From: a virus
Reading direction: 5' to 3' (one strand)
Virus record (IMG/VR): IMGVR_UViG_3300021445_000001
Location: 1-46,195 of that record
Length of the DNA stretch: 46,195 nucleotides
Within the stretch, counting starts at the first letter, position 1, and every line of letters starts with the position of its first letter. This document shows positions 3,027-46,195 of the stretch, piece after piece. A program made the translations under genes and the position numbers. A model generated the notes under the pieces. That model was not told the DNA's origin and did no database searches. It saw nothing but the letters and a program-made list of their open reading frames with translations.

Positions 3027-4964
3027 ATGAAAACGCTCAGCCCGAAACCTTCCCGACCCGATGCCAAGAGAATTGTTCTGGAAAAGCTTCGTGAAGGTTG
3101 GTCGATTGAGCGTTCGTGTGAATATGTTGGCGTCACCGTCAAGGCGTATGAGTATTGGCTGTACCGGTCCAAGGACCCGAAGGAACGCCAATGGTTTGCC
3201 GACGAGGTTAGACGCATTCGAGCCAAGCAGGCTCAGGCCGGCCCGCCCGAAGTCCCTGACTTCGAAGAGTTCTCCAGTGTCTATCTCGGGAACCGTCTGT
3301 TCGACCATCATCTTCAGTGGCTGGATCTTCTGGAGGGCCGTGAGCCCCGATCCATTCACCCGGCGCAGACCTACATTCCGGGCCACCCGAACCTGCTTCT
3401 GATCAACACTCCCCCGCACCACGCAAAGTCTGAGCTGTTCTGCCAGAACTATGTAACGTGGCGGATCGTGCGCGATCCGAACATGCGGGTGCTGCTGGTG
3501 TCCGCCTCGGCGGACCGGGCGAAGAAAAACCTTGATGGCATCAAGAACCGTCTTGACAAAGACATCATGGTCTATCGGGATCTCAAGGACACGTTTGCTC
3601 CGGCTGAGGGTTACAACTCTAAGGATGCCAAATGGTCCGCGGACATGATCTTGGTGAATCCGGCCATTAGGCCGCGCAACACTTCCGGGCACCCCACGGT
3701 GCAGGCTCTCGGTATTCGCAAGAAGATTTACGGTGCCCGTGCTGACCTCATCATCCTTGACGACTGCTGCGACCTTGACAACGCTCACGAGTTTCAGAAG
3801 CAGATTGAGTGGATCCAGGCGATTATCAACTCCCGCCTTGAGCCGGGAACCGGCAAGCTGATCATCGTAGGGACTCGCCTGGCCGCTCAGGACTTGTATT
3901 CGGAGCTGCGCAAGCCGGAGTGGTATCTGTCTGGTGAGTCGCCGTGGACGTATCTGTCGCAGCCGGCTGTGTTGGAGTTCACCGATAACCCGGAGACCTG
4001 GAAGACCCTGTGGCCGAAGACGAATGTTCCCCCGGCTGGTTTGGATAGGGTCGAGCCTGACGCCAACGGTTTCTATCGCATGTGGGATGGGCCGGCGCTG
4101 GCTGAGAAGCGCAACAACATGTCGGCCGAGATGTGGTCTCGTGTGTACATGCAGGCGCAGATCTCCCAGTCCACCACGTTCACTCAGGCGGAGATTGATG
4201 GCTGCACTAATGGAAGTCGTCACCCCGGGGTCATCAATCCAGGTATGCCAGGAGTCCGTCCCGAGGGCATGGCAGGCCTATATGTCGTGGCTGGATTGGA
4301 TCCGGCTGCTACAAACTATACGGCCATGGTCGTGGTCGGGGCCGACCTGTCATCAGGTCGGCGATATCTGCTTGACGTGTGGAACCAGCACGGAGCCCTT
4401 CCCGCCCAAACATCCGCAGTGATGAAGGAGTGGACCAAGCGTTACGGCATCTCCGAATGGCGCATTGAGGTCAACGCCTTTCAGGCGTCTATCTTGCAGG
4501 ATGAGGATCTACGTTCATGGATGTCTTCACGCTCGGTGAGGATGAGCGCCCACACGACCGGCAAGAACAAGTGGGATTCGATGTGGGGCGTCGCGACGAT
4601 GTCCAACCTGTTCAAGGGCTGGGAGCAGGGATACAACGCGCTGGAGCTGCCGTCTCGAAAAGGCCACCCTGGCGTGCAAGCCCTTGTAGAGCAGTTGGTT
4701 GCCTGGTACCCCACGCCGAACATGAACCGGGCACCTGTCCAAGACTGCGTAATGGCGTTGTGGTTTGCGGAGATTCGCTGCCGTGAACTGCTGGACCAGC
4801 AGGACGGGTCGTCCCACTGGGATTCCGGGTGGCTGTCTCCGAGGGATCGTGAAGAGCAGGTCACCGTGAATATCGACTGGTATTCCATGTCTAATGGTCG
4901 TTTCGATGAACCCCCGGAGCCTGACGGCCCCGTGATACAGAACCCCGCGAGGTGGTGGGAATAA
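3027..4964 (+). CDS. terL: terminase large subunit with N-terminal HTH (small-subunit-like) extension, 645 aa
   Basis: The N-terminus RIVLEKLREGWSIERSCEYVGVTVKAYEYW looks like an HTH. ATPase motifs are NTPPHHAKSE, ADLIILDDCCD and IVGTRLAAQD. The C-terminal nuclease-like region starts at VVAGLDPAATNYTAMVVVG. Confidence 0.85.
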   Translation: MKTLSPKPSRPDAKRIVLEKLREGWSIERSCEYVGVTVKAYEYWLYRSKDPKERQWFADEVRRIRAKQAQAGPPEVPDFEEFSSVYLGNRLFDHHLQWLDLLEGREPRSIHPAQTYIPGHPNLLLINTPPHHAKSELFCQNYVTWRIVRDPNMRVLLVSASADRAKKNLDGIKNRLDKDIMVYRDLKDTFAPAEGYNSKDAKWSADMILVNPAIRPRNTSGHPTVQALGIRKKIYGARADLIILDDCCDLDNAHEFQKQIEWIQAIINSRLEPGTGKLIIVGTRLAAQDLYSELRKPEWYLSGESPWTYLSQPAVLEFTDNPETWKTLWPKTNVPPAGLDRVEPDANGFYRMWDGPALAEKRNNMSAEMWSRVYMQAQISQSTTFTQAEIDGCTNGSRHPGVINPGMPGVRPEGMAGLYVVAGLDPAATNYTAMVVVGADLSSGRRYLLDVWNQHGALPAQTSAVMKEWTKRYGISEWRIEVNAFQASILQDEDLRSWMSSRSVRMSAHTTGKNKWDSMWGVATMSNLFKGWEQGYNALELPSRKGHPGVQALVEQLVAWYPTPNMNRAPVQDCVMALWFAEIRCRELLDQQDGSSHWDSGWLSPRDREEQVTVNIDWYSMSNGRFDEPPEPDGPVIQNPARWWE

Positions 4965-7824: not shown

Positions 7825-8251
7825 TGGTCCTGGTCCCATGTCCCGCCGCACCGATGGCGGTGCGGCTCAAGCTCTAGCGAAGCTCCCGGATGCCAAATAT
7901 GGCGAGAACGCGCAGTTCCAGAGTTTGCAACAGGGTGCTCCCCTTGCGGCGAGCGGCATTTCTCCGGCGGCTCCGGGGCTCGATGCCAACTCCCTCCCGT
8001 CCAATCCCGCAGCGGCGAATGTAGTTCCTTTCACGGCACCATCCAATCGGCCGGCTGAACCGGTAACCGCTGGCGCGTCCCTTGGTGCTGGTCCCGGTAC
8101 CGAGGCTTTGGGTATTCAACCGCAGCAGGCTGAACAGCAGGACATGGCGTCTTTGGCGCAGAACATGCCTGTGTATGAATTCTTGGCCAACCTGCCGAAT
8201 GCCTCGCCCTCGGCGAGGCTTCTAGTCAATCTCTTGCGAGCCGGCACATGA
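7793..8251 (+). CDS. hypothetical Ala/Pro/Gly-rich protein, 152 aa
   Basis: Strong RBS AGGAGGA upstream of the ATG. Confidence 0.65.
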   Translation: MPPPMQPAQVSGPGPMSRRTDGGAAQALAKLPDAKYGENAQFQSLQQGAPLAASGISPAAPGLDANSLPSNPAAANVVPFTAPSNRPAEPVTAGASLGAGPGTEALGIQPQQAEQQDMASLAQNMPVYEFLANLPNASPSARLLVNLLRAGT

Positions 8252-8457
8252 TGTGGTCAACCCCCATGGACGTTTTCGGCAATGCTCTTGACAATCTTCA
8301 GGAGACGCCGCAGATTTCTCGGCTGATGCTCGGCATCGGTCTAGCGCATGACGCGGCCCGGAACGTCCCCATTGATCTGCTGAGCAGCATCCCGCACTAC
8401 TTGTTTGAGGTTGATGACCGTGACCGTGGGCCCCTACCAGCCAGCACCGGGCAATAG
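8248..8457 (+). CDS. hypothetical protein, 69 aa
   Basis: ATGA overlap with the previous gene. Confidence 0.55.
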   Translation: MMWSTPMDVFGNALDNLQETPQISRLMLGIGLAHDAARNVPIDLLSSIPHYLFEVDDRDRGPLPASTGQ

Positions 8458-11400
8458 CTTTGGGGCCACCTCGACGGACCAGTTTGGTGCTATTTCCGCT
8501 GACACCAACCAGGCGCAGGCCAGTGCAGATCTGTACGCCCTCGGGCAGCAGCAGGCGCAGGCAGAGCCGAAGCCCCCAGAGAAAAAGTCGGGGCACGGTT
8601 GGTCATGGAATCCGCTTCAGGATGTCGGCCAGATCTGGCACGATGTCGAAACCCACACAATCGCCCCACTCTTCACGGCTGACCGTTCCGTCTACTCGCG
8701 CTTCATCTCCCGCCCTATTGCCGCACTGGAAACCTACCAGGCAAAGCAGTTTGAGAACCTGGCGCACGGCAACGAAACGGCTGGATCCTTCCTTGGTTTC
8801 AACTCCTCCGACTGGGCCAACTCCTGGAACGCCGCGAACCACATCTCGCCTGGCCAAGGTCTGGTTCTGGGTCTCAACAACGCCTTCTCTGTGGTCGACC
8901 ACTGGGACGGTTGGCACCCTGCGGGCGTTGCTGATCGCTCTGTGGACCCTTTCAATCAGGATGCCAAGAACGCGTTTTTCAAGAACTCCTGGGGTAACAA
9001 GATTGCCTCCGGTGGGACTGACGCTGCTGCGTCGACTGTTCTTGACCCGCTCGGAAAGCTCGGGAAGGCCACCAAGCTTGGTCGTATCTTCAAGGATGCG
9101 CCGATCAGGTCTTCTGACACTGTTGCTGACGTCGCCAACAAGCTGACCGCTCCACGCTCGCAGGCTTTTAATGACTGGGCTCTGGGCAAACCAGCCTCGG
9201 TCATCGCTGAGCACCCCATGGTTAAGGGAACCGCAGAGCGTCTCAATCCGTACAGGTACCAGACTGCTGCTTTGATTGCCGGCGCGAAGACGCCGGAAGA
9301 GGTCGCCCTGATTCGGGAGATCGCAGCCGGCTCCCCGGCTGCTCGGGCACAGCTCACTGAATTGGGCGAGACGACTGCTCATGCCCTCGACAAACTGGCT
9401 CAGGTCTCCAAGGATGCAGCTAGCCAAGCGGCGAACCTGTTTATTCCGGCCGAAACTATGGAGAAATTCGCGCTGAGCGCGGACACCTGGGGTAACAACA
9501 TTTCGTGGCTGAAAGACGTCTCGAAGGCTAAGGCTGCTGCTGCTCAGGGTGCGCTCAACGAACAGGCGGACATGGTCCAGCAGCTCCTCAAAATCCGGGG
9601 CGCTATGGCCGGCCGTACCACCTCTTCGGCGGTGGCAGAGAAACTGGCAGAACTGCGCGGAACCCTCAAATACGCCAACACCCGCAATATCGATCGTGTC
9701 AGCTTCCTGCAAAAGGCCTGGTATAACTTCCCGGTTCGGCTCTACCAGGGCCTGACCGACATGCCCGACGGGCTCATTAACCACCGTGACGACCAGGCAG
9801 TGCAGCAGGCCCGAAGCTGGCTCAACAAGTCTCGCAGTCTCACACCGGATCAGAAGAACGATCTTCTACAGAAGTATGCTTCTGCCACGCCGGCCGATCG
9901 TCAGCGCGCTTGGGACAGCATAGAGAACCAGGTCTACTCGGCGGTGGGGGAACGCTACGGCGTTTCCGATGATGTCATGAAGCGGATTCTTACTACCACG
10001 AAGACTCGTGGAAGCACTGTGGCTCAGGCTGCCCGCTCCAAAGACTACGGCGCTGTTGATCTGGGCACTGGTGCTGGTGACGCGATTCTGCCAACGGCAG
10101 ACTCTGAAATCCTCATGCATCCGCGCCTGATTACCCAGCTTGAGGCGGGGGCTGTGCCCCTGGCGAATCTTCGGCAGCTTGAGAACGCCCTGTCGACGAT
10201 GGACCGCAGTGGCCTGCTCGGCTCGATTGCAAATAAGGGCTCTGACGCTTACGACCTTCTTAATGCTGCTCTCGATCGTGTGTACGGCCTGTGGCGGCCC
10301 ATGTCGCTTCTTACTGGCCACCGTGCCTACAACCACATCGGCGATGACTGGCTCCGTGGTGTGGCAAAACTGGGCGCCTTGACTACCATCACCAACGCCC
10401 GTGAGGGCGCTGGGAACTGGCTCCGAAACCGTGGAAACCAGCTCACCCATAACAAGCTGATCGGCAACATTGAGGGCAAGCACCAGCAGCAAGTAGCTGA
10501 CGCCAAGGCGGAGTGGGAAGGTCTCAAGGCTCAAGCGGATTCGCAGAACTGGCTGACCCCGGAAAACAAATGGGTGTCGCCTCAGCTCGTTGCCGAGAAG
10601 AAGGCTATTTATGATGAGCTGCGCAAAACCCCGATCACGGATCTAGTCCAGCCCAAGCACCGCATCGGCGAAGGCACCTTTAAAATCCCCGGCTCCAATC
10701 TGGACTGGCCGGAAGCTTTCGGCGGCCCAAACGGGGATTACTACCGTCAGCTTACGAGCTCACAGCACACATTTGATTCTCTGGTAGACGATTCGGCGCA
10801 CAAGCTGCATGCCGTGGCAACCGCACAGCGGTTGCGTTCCTTCGGTCAGATCAGGGCTGTAGACGACCTGGCCAAGCACACGCGCGCGTACGTGCACTAC
10901 ATTCGCAACCAGATGATGCCGGACCCGCTGGCTAGGCAGATTGTTGCCGGCCGTGATCTGGACGAGGTTTCTGATTGGCTGAGCAACACTGCTGCCGGCC
11001 GGCAGCACATGCGGGATCTTCACATTGGGGACCCTGATGAGCATGTGCTGACTGTTGCCGAGATGGTGAAGACCTACCTTCCGACCGACGCCATGCGTGA
11101 TGCTGCTGTGGCTGGCAGGTTTGGTAAAGACATCATTGAGGCTGAGATGCCGACCGCGCACGTGCGCCCCGATATCCACGCTGATATCAACCTGATGGTT
11201 CATGGTGGGGATCCCACTGTCGGCATGCTCAAACGGTCTATGGACCGAATCATGAAGCTCACGGGTACGCTGCCCGACGACATCATGGTGCGGCATCCGG
11301 TATTCAACGCGCTGTACAAGAACCGTCTAACCAACGATGTGCAGTCTTGGGCAGCGCAGAACGGTGGGCGGATCGATTCGGTTATTGCTAACGAGCTGAT

Positions 11401-17978: not shown

Positions 17979-18050
17979 TCGGGTGTGGGCCAATGGTCGG
18001 CCGCCTGCTTTGGGAGCAGGAATACGGGAGTTCGATTCTCTCCATCCGGA
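17979..18050 (+). tRNA. tRNA-Pro (anticodon TGG)
   Basis: Hand-folded cloverleaf: acceptor TCGGGTG/CATCCGG (two G.U pairs), D arm GGCC-AATGGTC-GGCC, anticodon arm CCTGC-TTTGGGA-GCAGG, T arm GGGAG-TTCGATT-CTCTC. Confidence 0.8.
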
Positions 18051-18152
18051 CTCTGCACCAGCTCTTTCAGCGCTGGCTGTATGTATCAAAGTCTGAAATC
18101 CACCAGGTATCCGTCAAGCTCCCCGGCTTGATGCGGCCTTTAACAGGGAGTT

Positions 18153-28675: not shown

Positions 28676-28810
28676 ATGACGGGCTCTAAAGCCTGCCTGG
28701 CCAAGATTGCCGCCGCGATACTCCTTTTTCTCCTCTTGCCAGGCCTATGGGCTCTAAGCGCGGTCTTCCTCCTGATTGCCGAAAGCCTGCACGAGCATTA
28801 CAGCCACTAA
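28676..28810 (+). CDS. small membrane protein, 44 aa
   Basis: Translated by hand: MTGSKACLAKIAAAILLFLLLPGLWALSAVFLLIAESLHEHYSH. It is the last ORF before the operon terminator. Confidence 0.4.
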   Translation: MTGSKACLAKIAAAILLFLLLPGLWALSAVFLLIAESLHEHYSH

Positions 28811-28818
28811 ACAGTGCA

Positions 28819-28844
28819 GCCCCCCTCCCTTTCGGGAGGGGGGC
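28819..28844 (+). terminator. Late-operon terminator hairpin GCCCCCCTCCC-TTTC-GGGAGGGGGGC
   Basis: 11-bp GC stem followed by TATTGG, located at the plus/minus strand switch. Confidence 0.6.
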
Positions 28845-28901
28845 TATTGGCGTTGGTTGTGCCCGTCCCAACACCGGTCAGCAGCGTCCCACTGCTGACA
28901 T

Positions 28902-29063
28902 CTAGATCGCCGAGTTAAACGAGGCTGCAACCAGAAGGGTACTCCCGTCTGTCGGCGCTACGCGCCGCATCACCTCACCGGCCTGTTCCGGATCAACCTG
29001 GTCTAGCGGAACATCATCCAAATCTATCAAGTCCGAGGCCACATCATCAGCACTGAACTCCAC
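28902..29063 (-). CDS. possible small acidic protein, 53 aa
   Basis: Hand translation from a GTG start (M)EFSADDVASDLIDLDDVPLDQVDPEQAGEVMRR... with GGGGG 4 nt upstream. Followed by hairpin GTCAGCAG...CTGCTGAC at 28876-28899. Confidence 0.3.
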   Translation of the reverse strand: MEFSADDVASDLIDLDDVPLDQVDPEQAGEVMRRVAPTDGSTLLVAASFNSAI

Positions 29064-29121
29064 ATCGCCCCCAACGTTTGAGCCAGGCCAGGCGACCGGG
29101 GTGGATTTCCTGACCTGACAG

Positions 29122-29194
29122 TGGTCCCAGTAGGACTCGAACCTACGACAACCCCGGTTAAAAGCCGGGCGCTCTACCGCTGAGCTATGGGACC
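29122..29194 (-). tRNA. tRNA-Lys (anticodon TTT)
   Basis: GGTCCCATAGCTCAGCGGTAGAGCGCCCGGCTTTTAACCGGGGTTGTCGTAGGTTCGAGTCCTACTGGGACCA. All four arms pair. Confidence 0.85.
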
Positions 29195-29279
29195 AACCTA
29201 CTGGTTACAACCGGGGCCTCCACAGTGAGTCTCGCGAAGACAGCCGGCGCAATAACAAACACATTTCTTATCGGTCACG

Positions 29280-29354
29280 TGGCAGCCAAGGGATTTGAAC
29301 CGATGACCTCCGGCATATCAGGCCGGCGCTCTATCCAGACTGAGCTAGACTGCC
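29280..29354 (-). tRNA. tRNA-Ile (anticodon GAT), T stem with two mismatches
   Basis: GGCAGTC-TA-GCTC..GAGC-G-CCGGC-CTGATAT-GCCGG-AGGTC-ATCGG-TTCAAAT-CCCTT-GGCTGCC-A. The T stem ATCGG/CCCTT pairs at only 3 of 5 positions. Confidence 0.65.
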
Positions 29355-29469
29355 TCGCCCTGACAGCTCTTCGGGGGACCATCAGGGTTTATAGCTGTGA
29401 TCAGATCCGCGCATCCAGTCCGGGGCTGCCCCCTTTCTAAACTAGAAATGATCTGCAAGTTTTCTTGCG

Positions 29470-29542
29470 CTGCCGACCCTGGATTCGAACCAGGAACACA
29501 CGGATTAACAATCCGCTACTCTGCCACTTGAGTTAGCCAGCA
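29470..29542 (-). tRNA. tRNA-Asn (anticodon GTT)
   Basis: TGCTGGC-TA-ACTC-AAGTGGCA-GAGT-A-GCGGA-TTGTTAA-TCCGT-GTGTT-CCTGG-TTCGAAT-CCAGG-GTCGGCA-G. Confidence 0.8.
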
Positions 29543-29550
29543 AAACTTAG

Positions 29551-29624
29551 ACCCTACGCCTGTTCAATCGGGCTCGGCATACGGTAGCCGTCCGGAGTTC
29601 TCCTCCGGCTCTATTGGCGTAGGG
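29551..29624 (-). ncRNA. 74-nt stem-loop domain closed by a 9-bp helix (CCCTACGCC/GGCGTAGGG)
   Basis: Perfect 9-bp long-range complement enclosing the nested hairpin CCGGAG-TTCTC-CTCCGG. No ORF. Confidence 0.35.
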
Positions 29625-29630
29625 GTTAGC

Positions 29631-29755
29631 ACACCTGAGATCAAGGTGACCACGGAGATTGTTGATACCGTCACAACGTCGACCCTTGCGGGCCTCTCGG
29701 ATTTGAACCGAATTTCATTAGCAGTGAAGTATCCGTAGTCTATCGCACCAGGTGT
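29631..29755 (-). ncRNA. Structured-RNA module A (unknown family)
   Basis: Minus-strand read: CACCUG-GUGCGAUA-GACUACGGA-UACUUCA...UCCGUGGUC-ACCUUGAUCU-CAGGUG. The insert contains a T-arm-like hairpin UUCGG-UUCAAAU-CCGAG. Confidence 0.5.
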
Positions 29756-29892
29756 TGGACACTACGTGTGGCAGTTGCCACCCCAGCAATGGTTGCCAGA
29801 CGAGCAACCCTCACAACTACACGTACACTTGCACGGATCGGACAGCCATACCCACAACTTTCGCATGCTGGCTCCCGTAGAGTTCAAGGTGA

Positions 29893-29977
29893 TAGCAGAG
29901 ATCAAATCGAGTCGGCTTCTCGGTCTGATGATTAGTCAGAGTGTCGTAAGAAGTATGCCGCCTCTGCGCACCTGCTA
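29893..29977 (-). ncRNA. Structured-RNA module D (same family as A and B)
   Basis: UAGCAG-GUGCGCA-GAGGCGGC-AUACUUC...GCCGACUC-GAUUUGAUCU-CUGCUA. Confidence 0.45.
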
Positions 29978-29988
29978 CCGTACTTTGC

Positions 29989-30062
29989 GTGTCTGAGATC
30001 AAAGGGACGACAGGGTGTGATCATCCAAATATGAAGTACCTGTCATCTATCGCACCAGACAC
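29989..30062 (-). ncRNA. Structured-RNA module B (same family, minimal 74-nt version)
   Basis: GUGUCUG-GUGCGAUA-GAUGACAGG-UACUUCAUAUUUGGAUGAUCACAC-CCUGUCGUC-CCUUUGAUCU-CAGACAC. Confidence 0.5.
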
Positions 30063-30128
30063 TGAATCTGGATGGTCCCGCCCCTCAGCCGGCACATCCT
30101 ATTGAATGAAACTGAGGGGCAGAACCCG

Positions 30129-30210
30129 CTTCCGGGGCAGGCCACGCGCCTGCCATCTTTGTGGAATGTCATGGAGACCACAACGCTCTACTCTTGAGCT
30201 ACCGGAAACC
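30129..30210 (-). ncRNA. Aberrant tRNA-like element (canonical acceptor and D arm, 13-nt anticodon-position loop, no T loop)
   Basis: UUUCCGG-UA-GCUC-AAGAGUA-GAGC-G-UUGUGG-UCUCCAUGACAUU-CCACAA-AGAU-GGCAGGC-GCGUG-GCCUGCC-CCGGAAG. Confidence 0.4.
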
Positions 30211-30391
30211 AGGTAGACGCTTGTGCGGAGAGCCTACCTTGGGTGTTCACTTGTAAAGCAGCGCATGACTCACAGTGTGTCCGAATCACCCTAACCATGG
30301 ATGAGTGGTATACGTGAGCGCCGAGGTATACCGGCCCGGCTGAACGAGGAAACCAAACCGCCCGCATCAGACAGCCAGGATTCTTTGCCCG

Positions 30392-30468
30392 TAGCGGTAG
30401 GTGGGATTTGAACCCACGATCTCCGGCTTATGAGGCCGGCGGGGACAGCCGAGCTCCCCTACTCCGCT
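30392..30468 (-). tRNA. tRNA-Met-like (anticodon CAT) with irregular acceptor stem
   Basis: Anticodon arm CCGGC-CTCATAA-GCCGG, T arm GTGGG-TTCAAAT-CCCAC and D stem GGGG/CCCC are good. The acceptor strands GCGGAGT / CTACCGC pair only partly, or need one extra nucleotide. Confidence 0.55.
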
Positions 30469-30576
30469 TCCGGAAGATCCACAATCGACACATCGCCAGG
30501 ATGTGGGCGCTCTACTGCTTCTCTTCCGTTCTCACCTTGCTGGCTTAGGAGGGCTTTGCTTGGTGATGGACTCAGC

Positions 30577-31026
30577 TTAGAGACGCAGACCACTGACTGT
30601 CAACCCAGATTTTGGGCGGAACTCCATCGGCGTTAAATCACCCTGGCGCACCCCGATGAGCGTTTTTGCCACAGCAACAGGGAAGTTGGGGTCAAAGTCC
30701 ATTTCGCCCGTCTTGGGGTTGAACGCCATGTAATACACGATGATCTCCCCCACCTGTTCGCAGTAGTATATAAAGTTCGTGATCTTATTGTGGATGGCGT
30801 ACCAGCCGGGCTTGATCGGCTCAGGCTTGGGTGCCGGCTTCACGTAAAACTGGATCGTCTTCGGCGTGGCGTCCACCAGGTCAGACAGTTTGATCATGCG
30901 GTTATCGCCAGTGCCGTACTTGACCATGGCCACGTTGTCTTCGATATGCACGATTGTTCCGTGCGCGCCCCAGCTGTGACCATCACCCTTGCGCCGAACC
31001 TGCTGGCCTTTAACAAATTCTGCCAC
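30577..31026 (-). CDS. hypothetical protein, 149 aa
   Basis: ORF track; directly downstream of the polymerase gene on the same strand. Confidence 0.65.
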   Translation of the reverse strand: MAEFVKGQQVRRKGDGHSWGAHGTIVHIEDNVAMVKYGTGDNRMIKLSDLVDATPKTIQFYVKPAPKPEPIKPGWYAIHNKITNFIYYCEQVGEIIVYYMAFNPKTGEMDFDPNFPVAVAKTLIGVRQGDLTPMEFRPKSGLTVSGLRL

Positions 31027-45894: not shown

Positions 45895-46105
45895 TGGAAC
45901 CCACCTTGATGCACGTCTTGCAGGTGATCTCCACGTCAGAGTTCATGTTGTGGCGGACACCACGAGCCTTTCGGCCACACAGCGTGAAGTTCTCTCGGAT
46001 GTAGGACCAGTTCCCATCGGATGTGGCGTGAATGACGCCGTTGAGCCCGTCCGACAGCATTGCCCCAAACCGCGCTTTCACTGTATCTCTCCACTTCTGA
46101 ATCAC
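45887..46105 (-). CDS. hypothetical protein, 72 aa (CxxC at C-terminus); start lies inside the terminal overlap
   Basis: ORF track. The start at 46105 corresponds to position 37 of the circle. Confidence 0.55.
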   Translation of the reverse strand: MIQKWRDTVKARFGAMLSDGLNGVIHATSDGNWSYIRENFTLCGRKARGVRHNMNSDVEITCKTCIKVGSND

Positions 46106-46195
46106 TTTGCACTGAGTGATCCTGGCGGTGCCGGGGTTAGAACCCCGGCACCACTAGCTACCTTCAGTACTTGCATGGGTTTTCGATGATCTGAT
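46069..46195. repeat. Terminal overlap copy 2 (identical to 1-127)
   Basis: Read directly from the sequence. Confidence 0.9.

Follow-up and report, generated by a model that had tools for sequence, protein, structure and literature searches.

Bacterial Y RNAs of the YrlA type are defined by a 5′ GNCGAA-type Ro60-site motif, by YUAY, and by V, T, AS (capped acceptor-like), and D stem-loops, and they are known from 254 bacteria and 22 phages, where they are encoded on the Ro60 strand and ≤4 kb from that gene (PMC4201824). In the Thermus phage phiLo, Ro60 and Yrl RNAs bind and attenuate the PNPase of the host (PMC12135203). Here, we analyzed a 46,195-nt stretch of viral DNA, IMG/VR record IMGVR_UViG_3300021445_000001 (named the window hereafter), in which a structured gap of 850 nt (29543-30392) separates two tRNA genes. 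Three units in this gap, named u1, u2, and u3, are paralogous members of the bacterial/phage Y RNA family, of the YrlA/YrlB type. To our knowledge, phage Y RNAs have been described so far only beside a phage Ro60 gene. The family is thus a known one with three further members, which are unusual in being orphaned from Ro60.

The units resemble YrlA and YrlB (PMC4201824; RF02553) in that their 5′ and 3′ ends form a closing stem, which is followed by a large internal loop with a CGA motif on its 5′ side and then by UAC (YUAY). Their long form displays V, T, capped acceptor-like, and D elements in this order, and short forms without this module occur beside the long one. R2, a covariance model for which only 24 diverse Ro60-adjacent bacterial (actinobacterial) RNAs were used, matches both the published YrlA of mycobacteriophage ET08 and the window units. 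Unlike YrlA and YrlB, however, the window units have no Ro60 within 4 kb or elsewhere in the genome, are part of a tRNA array, and are present in three copies. Moreover, their 5′ motif is GUGCGAUAG or GUGCGCAGA rather than the literal GNCGAA(N)G, and the Rfam model is blind to them. Yrl1 and Yrl2 of phiLo (PMC12135203), which we liken to the units by description and not by sequence, are also phage-encoded, consist of a stem, a bulge with a CGAA-type motif, and a second stem, and have a proposed action on PNPase. Whereas phiLo brings its own Ro60 into a host that lacks one, here the host would supply Ro60.

Three Y RNA units on one strand of a tRNA array

Read as RNA, the minus strand of the interval folds at -334.6 kcal/mol (z = -4.69), with none of 20 shuffled sequences being equally stable, whereas the plus strand folds at -287.1 kcal/mol (z = -1.43). 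The interval is therefore genuinely structured on one specific strand, the one that also encodes the flanking tRNAs. An original prediction, made from the letters alone, had given all its helices in plus-strand letters; the actual RNAs are the reverse complements. On the minus strand, the order is tRNA-Met, a spacer, hairpin H2, tRNA-like element X, hairpin H3, u2, u3, an orphan box with a spacer, u1, element E, and tRNA-Asn. The three units and the box are as follows, with scores from R2 and from R1, the core covariance model of the units from the window clade, and z values for the minimum free energy (MFE).

29989-30062, minus strand: Y RNA u2, short form, YrlB-like (R1 65.9 bits; R2 44.8 bits, E 1.1e-7; MFE z = -3.56)
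29892-29978, minus strand: Y RNA u3, medium form (R1 57.7 bits; R2 38.4 bits, E 2.9e-6; MFE z = -1.0)
29631-29755, minus strand: Y RNA u1, long form, YrlA-like (R1 63.2 bits; R2 51.8 bits, E 3.3e-9, full-length; MFE z = -2.87)
29879-29892, minus strand: extra 3′ junction box, UCACCUUGAACUC / GAGTTCAAGGTGA, directly after u3 (repeat family D1)

The units are paralogs (repeat families D1, D3, and D5) that share a common frame. From the 5′ end, a 7-bp stem P1 is followed by GUGCG with three or four further bases and then by an 8-9-bp stem P2, whose two strands enclose UACUUC and a variable insert; 10 nt that end with UUGAUCU separate the 3′ strands of P2 and P1. P1 and P2 are thus joined by an asymmetric internal loop, whose 5′ strand (8 nt) carries GUGCGA and whose 3′ strand (10 nt) carries UUGAUCU. 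In MFE folds, C-G, G-U, and A-U pairs join the 5′ CGA to the 3′ UUG, and there is a G-C pair next to P1. In u2, P1 (GUGUCUG/CAGACAC) is followed by GUGCGAUA, P2 (GAUGACAGG/CCUGUCGUC), UACUUC, and a small apical loop, the 3′ side being CCUUUGAUCU. In u3, P1 is GUAGCAG/CUGCUAU, the 5′ motif is the variant GUGCGCAGA, which is common in Ro60-linked members, P2 has 8 bp with one mismatch, and the apical hairpin displays a conserved 7-nt loop, CUAAUCA. The outer part of u1 consists of P1 (ACACCUG/CAGGUGU), GUGCGAUA, P2 (GACUACGGA/UCCGUGGUC), and UACUUC. Within P2 are a V hairpin (UUCA/UGAA), a T arm (UUCGG-UUCAAAU-CCGAG), a capped acceptor-like stem (GGCCC-GCAA-GGGUC), and then a D arm (GUUG-UGACGGUAU-CAAC) with GG in its loop, followed by the 3′ junction ACCUUGAUCU. 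This tRNA-like module, with its permuted order V, T, capped acceptor-like, and D, is present in u1 only; u2 and u3 are without it, as is YrlB. MAFFT aligned the AS and D arms inconsistently across units. A canonical or permuted tRNA was rejected as a description of the units: no cloverleaf can be drawn, and the order is T-AS-D within an outer two-stem frame. The additional box at 29879-29892, already noticed in the original prediction, was recovered in repeat family D1 (GAGTTCAAGGTGA at 29880-29892). No matching 5′ half was found nearby, and the box is probably a remnant of another Y RNA unit.

In vertebrate Y RNAs such as hY1, the 3′ partner strand of the Ro60 site reads UUGAC. Like metazoan Y RNAs, the window units have a stem of paired ends, and the GUGCGA that faces UUGAUC is predicted to form the same C-G, G-U, and A-U pairs, a likeness that is drawn in part from the hY1 sequence. 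In metazoan Y RNAs, the Ro60 site, GGUCCGA, can pair with conserved 3′ residues into a bulged helix (PMC4201824). Unlike the long window unit, animal Y RNAs have no tRNA-like module, and they are transcribed by RNA polymerase III.

Conserved pairing across related phages

Using PolA homologs, we identified four syntenic relatives, L009, L012, L013, and L039 (loci are named by our own numbers), with PolA identities of 76, 75, 73, and 78%, respectively. In all four, an RNA block devoid of genes is flanked by PolA plus one to three small open reading frames (ORFs) on one side and by the lysis/tail genes on the other. These blocks contain nine more units, which makes 12 units in 5 phages including the window, and a search of 654 kb of related loci with R1 returned exactly these 12. 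In an alignment that was fitted to the R1 model, and is therefore biased toward pairing, P1 and P2 are 94.6% paired over the 12 units, with changes on both sides in 13 of 16 pairs. None of 500 shuffles was as good, and pairing was only 28-45% when the partner was slid by 1-3 columns as a control. P1 is 100% paired, with five of seven pairs covarying, and P2 is 90% paired, with eight of nine pairs covarying. Independently of the alignment bias, P1 strands as unlike as GUGUCUG, ACACCUG, GCGCCUG, and GUAGCAG are each found with their exact complement. Most units out-fold their shuffles (z -2.3 to -4.4). The best-kept parts over the 12 units are the boxes GGUGCG, UACUUC, and UUGAUCUC, which are invariant columns. 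In the ortholog of u3 (L012 7810-7896), the apical stem is wholly different and the loop is identical.

Linkage of the family to Ro60

The published YrlA of phage ET08 is located just upstream of the ET08 Ro gene and reads closing stem, GCCGAGAG, 8 nt, UUACCUC, V, T, AS, D. For comparison, u1 reads closing stem, (G)UGCGAUAG, 8 nt, (A)UACUUC, V, T, AS, D, i.e. with the same module order. To survey the family, we scanned IMG/VR with the pattern GGTGCG-N6-12-TACTTC-N25-55 or N72-102-TTGANCTCNG, in which P1 pairing is not demanded. Two scans yielded 76 and 97 loci (about 140 viral contigs), against a chance expectation of ∼16 per scan by our own estimate. A profile seeded with the ET08 Ro protein (gp220) identified 95 Ro60-like ORFs in 94 of these loci, and the four ORFs analyzed with Pfam all contain TROVE, one of them also VWA. 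Every unit in these 94 loci is on the Ro60 strand (153/153), with a median gap of 111 nt; 136 are upstream of Ro60, and 149 of the 153 have at least six of seven P1 pairs. A first, over-specific scan of viral contigs (GGTGCGATAGA-N9-TACTTC) was discarded, having returned five chance matches inside coding genes.

In GTDB genomes, the long pattern matched at least 120 loci, overwhelmingly in Actinomycetota, and the matches listed include Streptomyces, Actinomadura, Lentzea, Kitasatospora, Streptosporangium, and Micromonosporaceae. Among the matches listed, 81 loci have a Ro60-like ORF, and all 87 units at these loci are on the same strand as this ORF (median gap 26 nt). These bacterial Ro60-adjacent RNAs have the same P1/P2/V/T/AS/D layout as u1. 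The few matches outside actinobacteria are due to chance, as their P1 pairing is poor. The 5′ motif of Ro60-adjacent members is mostly GUGCGCAGG (73), then GUGCGCAGA (13) and GUGCGAAGG (9). In the window, where it is GUGCGAUAG in two units and GUGCGCAGA in one, CGA is kept and the literal GNCGAAN0-1G is absent.

R1 missed the ET08 YrlA and found units in the closest clade only, which first seemed contrary to a link with Y RNAs and was settled by the wider pattern scans and by R2. The 24 RNAs behind R2 were picked by the window-derived pattern, which the ET08 YrlA lacks, and R2 scores this published RNA at 63.8 bits (E 7.5e-12). It matches all window units over their full length, at 51.8, 44.8, and 38.4 bits (E 3e-9, 1e-7, and 3e-6). 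On tRNA arrays, it gives only partial matches of ≤33 bits, at model positions about 30-110. The assignment of the units to the Y RNA family thus rests on covarying closing helices, on a signature linked to Ro60, and on a model that recovers both the ET08 YrlA and the units. The Rfam YrlA model (RF02553, gathering score 69 bits) gives the ET08 YrlA only 37.4 bits, below gathering, and is therefore narrow. It scores the T-AS-D part of a paralog in L039 (2584-2655) at 32.6 bits (E 2e-5), not far below its score for ET08. With at least 94 viral loci that have an adjacent Ro60, the actinobacterial/phage branch is far larger than the 22 phages of 2014. RF02553 fails to detect this branch, the published ET08 RNA among its members, and the genes consequently go unlabeled in current annotation pipelines.

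The partial matches of R2 cover the T arm of a tRNA together with the D arm of the tRNA that follows it in a tandem array (L074 7731-7823 and 7298-7377; L014 2720-2796). The tRNA-like module of YrlA therefore resembles a tRNA-tRNA junction, which hints at its origin. Two family members, L195 2376-2514 and L154 2570-2705, embed a whole tRNA of normal order (D, anticodon, T) in P2 in place of the permuted T/AS/D, and these embedded tRNAs score 61.7 and 45.2 bits, respectively, with the Rfam tRNA model. As a side reading, such tRNA-embedding Y RNAs, the tRNA arrays of sister clades described below, and the junction likeness would document that the tRNA-like domains of Y RNAs arose from tandem tRNA genes.

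A complete phage genome without Ro60

Nucleotides 1-128 of the window recur at 46068-46195. This is a circular-assembly overlap, and the window is therefore a complete, closed 46-kb phage genome. No Ro60 was found in the complete 46,195-nt genome by tblastn with the ET08 protein, nor in the window by the 95-member phage Ro60 profile or by Pfam on all large ORFs. Because this complete genome is without Ro60, its three units are orphan Y RNAs. The locus L154 (IMGVR_UViG_3300050498_000512) may harbor a second orphan array: at least five or six consecutive Y RNA units occupy 1020-2705, among other structured stretches and a tRNA, and the 11.6 kb examined contain no Ro60 ORF.

The genome encodes terminase, capsid, an SU10-type adaptor, NlpC/P60 and SLT virion proteins, and a GH25 lysin, as well as a family A DNA polymerase with exonuclease, a PD-(D/E)XK nuclease, and a serine integrase. 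Relatives have WhiB and DnaB-like genes, indicating that the host is likely an actinobacterium, with Actinomycetota as the likely host class. When the region and 24 kb of the window were compared by BLAST with 50,697 isolated phages, only tRNAs matched and no close relative emerged, and the window proteins led only to identical copies in two other samples, without informative microvariation. A PolA-anchored search found no locus in GTDB genomes and one in IMG/VR, which ends before the RNA region. More distant relatives (50-60% identity in PolA) each harbor at least 19 canonical tRNAs at this site and lack Y RNAs, which the window clade combines with only four or five tRNAs. Dense tRNA arrays at this site are seen in L025 (7329-9435), L074 (6850-9114), and L073 (7610-10188), and also in L028, L030, L031, and L052.

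Other modules of the array

The remaining features of the array, in RNA sense from the 5′ end, are as follows.

30391-30468, minus strand: tRNA-Met (CAT), 5′ boundary of the array in RNA sense (ARAGORN; Rfam tRNA 47.1 bits)
30240-30390, minus strand: spacer with hairpin GGUAUAC/GUAUACC (30307-30332), no counterpart in the alignment of relatives
30211-30239, minus strand: hairpin H2, AGGUAG/CUACCU, directly 5′ of X (read by eye)
30129-30210, minus strand: tRNA-like element X (not called by ARAGORN or Rfam)
30066-30128, minus strand: hairpin H3, 15-bp G+C-rich helix (30074-30088 / 30112-30126) with GUGCCGG in the loop (inverted repeat I2)
29756-29878, minus strand: window-specific spacer with hairpin GGUUGC/GCAACC (29791-29809), no counterpart in relatives, site of two spurious ORFs
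29551-29625, minus strand: element E, 75-nt domain with a 9-10-bp closing helix and an inner hairpin CCGGAG-GAGAAC-CUCCGG
29469-29542, minus strand: tRNA-Asn (GTT), 3′ boundary of the interval, with tRNA-Ile and tRNA-Lys beyond (ARAGORN, Rfam)
29279-29354, minus strand: tRNA-Ile (ARAGORN, Rfam)
29121-29194, minus strand: tRNA-Lys (ARAGORN, Rfam)

The number and order of modules vary among the related phages, with 1, 2, or 3 Y RNA units and with E or X present or absent; tRNA-Met is at the same place in all of them. The tRNA-like element that had been noticed at 30129-30210 is indeed present, on the minus strand. In X, a 7-bp acceptor stem (UUUCCGG/CCGGAAG) is combined with a D arm (GCUC/GAGC) lacking GG in its loop AAGAGUA, a 6-bp stem with a 13-nt loop instead of an anticodon arm, and a T stem (GGCAGG/CCUGCC) with a non-T loop (CGCGUGG). 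It therefore departs from a canonical cloverleaf in its T-loop, in the missing D-loop GG, and in the missing 5-bp/7-nt anticodon arm. Its orthologs are recognized by the Rfam tRNA model (L012 7512-7582, 44.5 bits; L009 7674-7744, 45.7 bits; L013 7995-8063, 40.3 bits), with aberrant anticodon arms. As assessed by RNAalifold, the acceptor, D, and T arms are kept, the T stem with compensatory changes, and there is no anticodon arm. Confined to the window clade, X is a clade-specific tRNA-like gene whose window copy is decayed or diverted. The 850-nt structured gap is explained by known biology, with Y RNAs and a decayed tRNA-like gene making up most of its conserved structure.

All the helices of the original prediction are present, two of them with a first arm that is one base off. 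For H3, it had reported a 9-bp helix, of which CTGAGGGGC is at 30112-30120 as given and GCCCCTCAG is at 30080-30088; a repeat search extends both arms to 15 nt. In L009, L012, and L013, H3 is a 13-16-bp helix with compensatory changes. It was rejected as a terminator, the helix not being followed by a U-run, and it may be a processing site; X and H3 together could act as processing punctuation. For E, predicted as a 74-nt domain, the 9-bp helix CCCTACGCC/GGCGTAGGG is formed by 29552-29560 and 29616-29624 and reaches 10 bp with 29551/29625. E is also found in L009 (about 7995-8085) and L013 (about 8415-8500), and over these three genomes its closing helix covaries (CCCUACAC/GUGUAGGG and CCACACACC/GGUGUGUGG). 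It is absent from L012 and L039, and it has no Rfam match and no known relative. H2 was predicted exactly (AGGTAG/CTACCT, 30211-30216 / 30234-30239). At its site, relatives display a different hairpin (AGGCCGG/CCGGCCU or AGGAC/GUCCU) preceded by TTGAAA-N16-17-TAAGG, which could be a promoter. A scan for promoter consensus sequences at H2 found none.

The hairpins GGTTGC-CAGACGA-GCAACC (29791-29809) and GGTATAC/GTATACC (30307-30313 / 30326-30332) are also exactly where they had been placed. The spacers in which they lie, 29756-29891 and 30240-30390, are probably not functional, hairpins included. Variable sequence or degraded tRNA genes without conserved pairing, which the original prediction had named as its refutation, are what we see in these two spacers, and partly in X, but not elsewhere. 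At a cutoff of ≥60 amino acids, the only ORFs in the interval are the two that it had listed, 29766-29996 (plus strand) and 29817-30002 (minus strand). Their coding potential was rejected, as they overlap each other on opposite strands and fall within u3 and a non-conserved spacer, and as relatives lack any counterpart. A YUAAGWUU-like sequence (uuaaguuu, guaagauu, gcuaagauu, cuaaguuu) is shared by the 8-10-nt spacers that follow Y RNA units or precede tRNA-Asn, for example at L012 7802-7809 and 7897-7904, L013 8285-8293, and window 29543-29550, and may be a processing signal. After the Y RNAs of L009 (8091-8167) and L039 (2766-2841), there is a weak extra tRNA (Rfam 35-39 bits, anticodon loop GAU) that is not called by ARAGORN and is absent from the window.

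The tRNA cluster of phage T4 includes two small stable RNAs, species 1 and 2. Like the window units, these are small non-tRNA RNAs within a phage tRNA cluster, presumably co-processed with it; their sequences are unrelated.

Proposed role and alternative explanations

We propose that the middle of this minus-strand array of small RNAs consists of Y RNAs that are orphaned from Ro60 and act on the Ro60 ortholog of the host, Rsr, a reading to which we give a probability of roughly 0.8. The array (tRNA-Met, X, H3, three Y RNAs, E, tRNA-Asn, tRNA-Ile, and tRNA-Lys) would be transcribed together with its tRNAs as one precursor. This precursor would be cut by tRNA-processing and other host RNases at the tRNAs and tRNA-like elements, the long hairpin, and the A/U-rich 8-10-nt spacers. 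The freed Y RNAs could then bind host Rsr via the bulged GUGCGA/UUGAUC helix between P1 and P2, and so capture or redirect RNA decay by Rsr-PNPase during infection. Binding of host Rsr by the phage RNAs is the simplest mechanism, given how commonly members of the family adjoin rsr in Actinomycetota, the likely host class. By analogy, the effect on PNPase would be similar to that in phiLo but exerted through the Rsr of the host. A complete phage with three Y RNAs and no Ro60 would imply that phage RNAs can be aimed at host Ro60/PNPase.

Several points weigh against this proposal. The genomic hallmark of YrlA, Ro60 at ≤4 kb and on the same strand, is not found in the window, and RF02553 gives no match to the window units even at E ≤ 10. 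The pattern used in the scans was derived from the window units and therefore reaches only those family members that have these boxes in common. GUGCGAUAG does not rank among the 12 most frequent 5′ motifs in Ro60-linked members, where GUGCGCAGG or GUGCGAAGG prevails, and its deviation from the literal GNCGAA could mean weaker Ro60 binding. The fold of u3 is no better than its shuffles (z -1.0). That the host carries Rsr is only likely, with Y RNA/Ro60 loci being common in Actinomycetota and WhiB being encoded by the phage. Finally, transcription, processing, and Rsr binding of the units are all predicted from sequence.

It could be argued that the interval is what remains of a once larger tRNA array, made of degraded tRNAs and leftover stems without a function of their own. 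The relatives with 50-60% PolA identity, with their ≥19 canonical tRNAs at exactly this position, would agree with this, as would X, which is without T-loop and D-loop GG and is not called a tRNA, the spacers 29756-29878 and 30240-30390 without counterpart, the orphan 3′ box at 29879-29892, and the adjacent-tRNA junctions that partially match the T-AS-D part of the Y RNA model. However, P1 and P2 persist through compensatory changes between phages with a PolA identity of only 73-78%, and H3 and E covary too. Furthermore, the units match the Ro60-adjacent model R2 over their full length, whereas tRNA junctions do so only partially (≤33 bits), making such a remnant quite improbable. Alternatively, the Y RNA-shaped units might act without Ro60, by directly binding PNPase or a tRNA-processing/modifying enzyme, or, together with X, as decoys for tRNA-targeting defense nucleases. 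We consider this unlikely because the best-conserved parts are the Ro60-site boxes GGUGCG, UACUUC, and UUGAUCUC and not the tRNA-like module, which is missing from two of the three window units, and because the decoy targets are hypothetical. In its favor, the phage is without Ro60, the units are found among tRNAs and with tRNA-like modules, their 5′ motif has diverged from the one most frequent in Ro60-linked members, and X retains acceptor, D, and T arms and never a normal anticodon arm. In addition, phiLo Yrl RNAs bind PNPase even without Ro60 (PMC12135203).

The original prediction had allowed for either one large ornate RNA of the GOLLD/ROOL type or a processed polycistronic RNA array. 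The whole interval is gene-free and densely structured (z = -4.69), and it adjoins tRNAs, as GOLLD and ROOL do according to that prediction; like them, it is non-coding, structured, and phage-borne. Nevertheless, Rfam 15 at gathering score found only tRNAs in the whole window, and at E ≤ 10 it found tRNAs alone in 28900-30700, with no GOLLD, ROOL, tmRNA, riboswitch, or ribozyme. The same search of the relatives, at gathering and permissive thresholds, also gave only tRNAs. Every module closes on itself, no conserved long-range pairing is seen, and relatives have 1, 2, or 3 units with or without E or X. The window thus contains independent RNAs of 70-125 nt and not one fold of 400-800 nt, which makes a single large RNA hardly credible. 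The array of small RNAs is the option supported: the modules range from tRNA size to 125 nt, share the strand of the tRNAs, have spacers of 8-10 nt between them, and are each closed by a covarying stem of their own. Hammerhead and other ribozymes, a retron non-coding RNA, CRISPR, and ToxI-like repeats were rejected as well, for want of supporting motifs, neighbor genes, and Rfam matches. Returning to Y RNAs that act on host Rsr, a broader and much more tentative reading is that a temperate, Ro60-less actinophage keeps three Y RNAs, selected for their structure, in place of most of an ancestral tRNA array, perhaps for an RNA-only hijack of Rsr/PNPase or for anti-defense.

Surroundings of the array

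A lone tRNA-Pro (TGG) is encoded at 17979-18051 (plus strand), within the virion gene block and distant from the tRNA cluster. Between the convergent virion genes and the RNA array, there is a perfect G+C-rich hairpin at 28808-28842 (CCCCCCTCCC TTTCG GGGAGGGGGG), which is probably a bidirectional terminator; its equivalent in L012 (8865-8895) has a U-tail. Just downstream of the tRNAs is a conserved acidic ORF of 47-53 amino acids ending with ...SFNSAI (window 28902-29063, minus strand; L013 8905-9048; L039 about 3190-3363), for which a precomputed table lists a weak match to the Pfam family FxSxx-COOH (PF27839).

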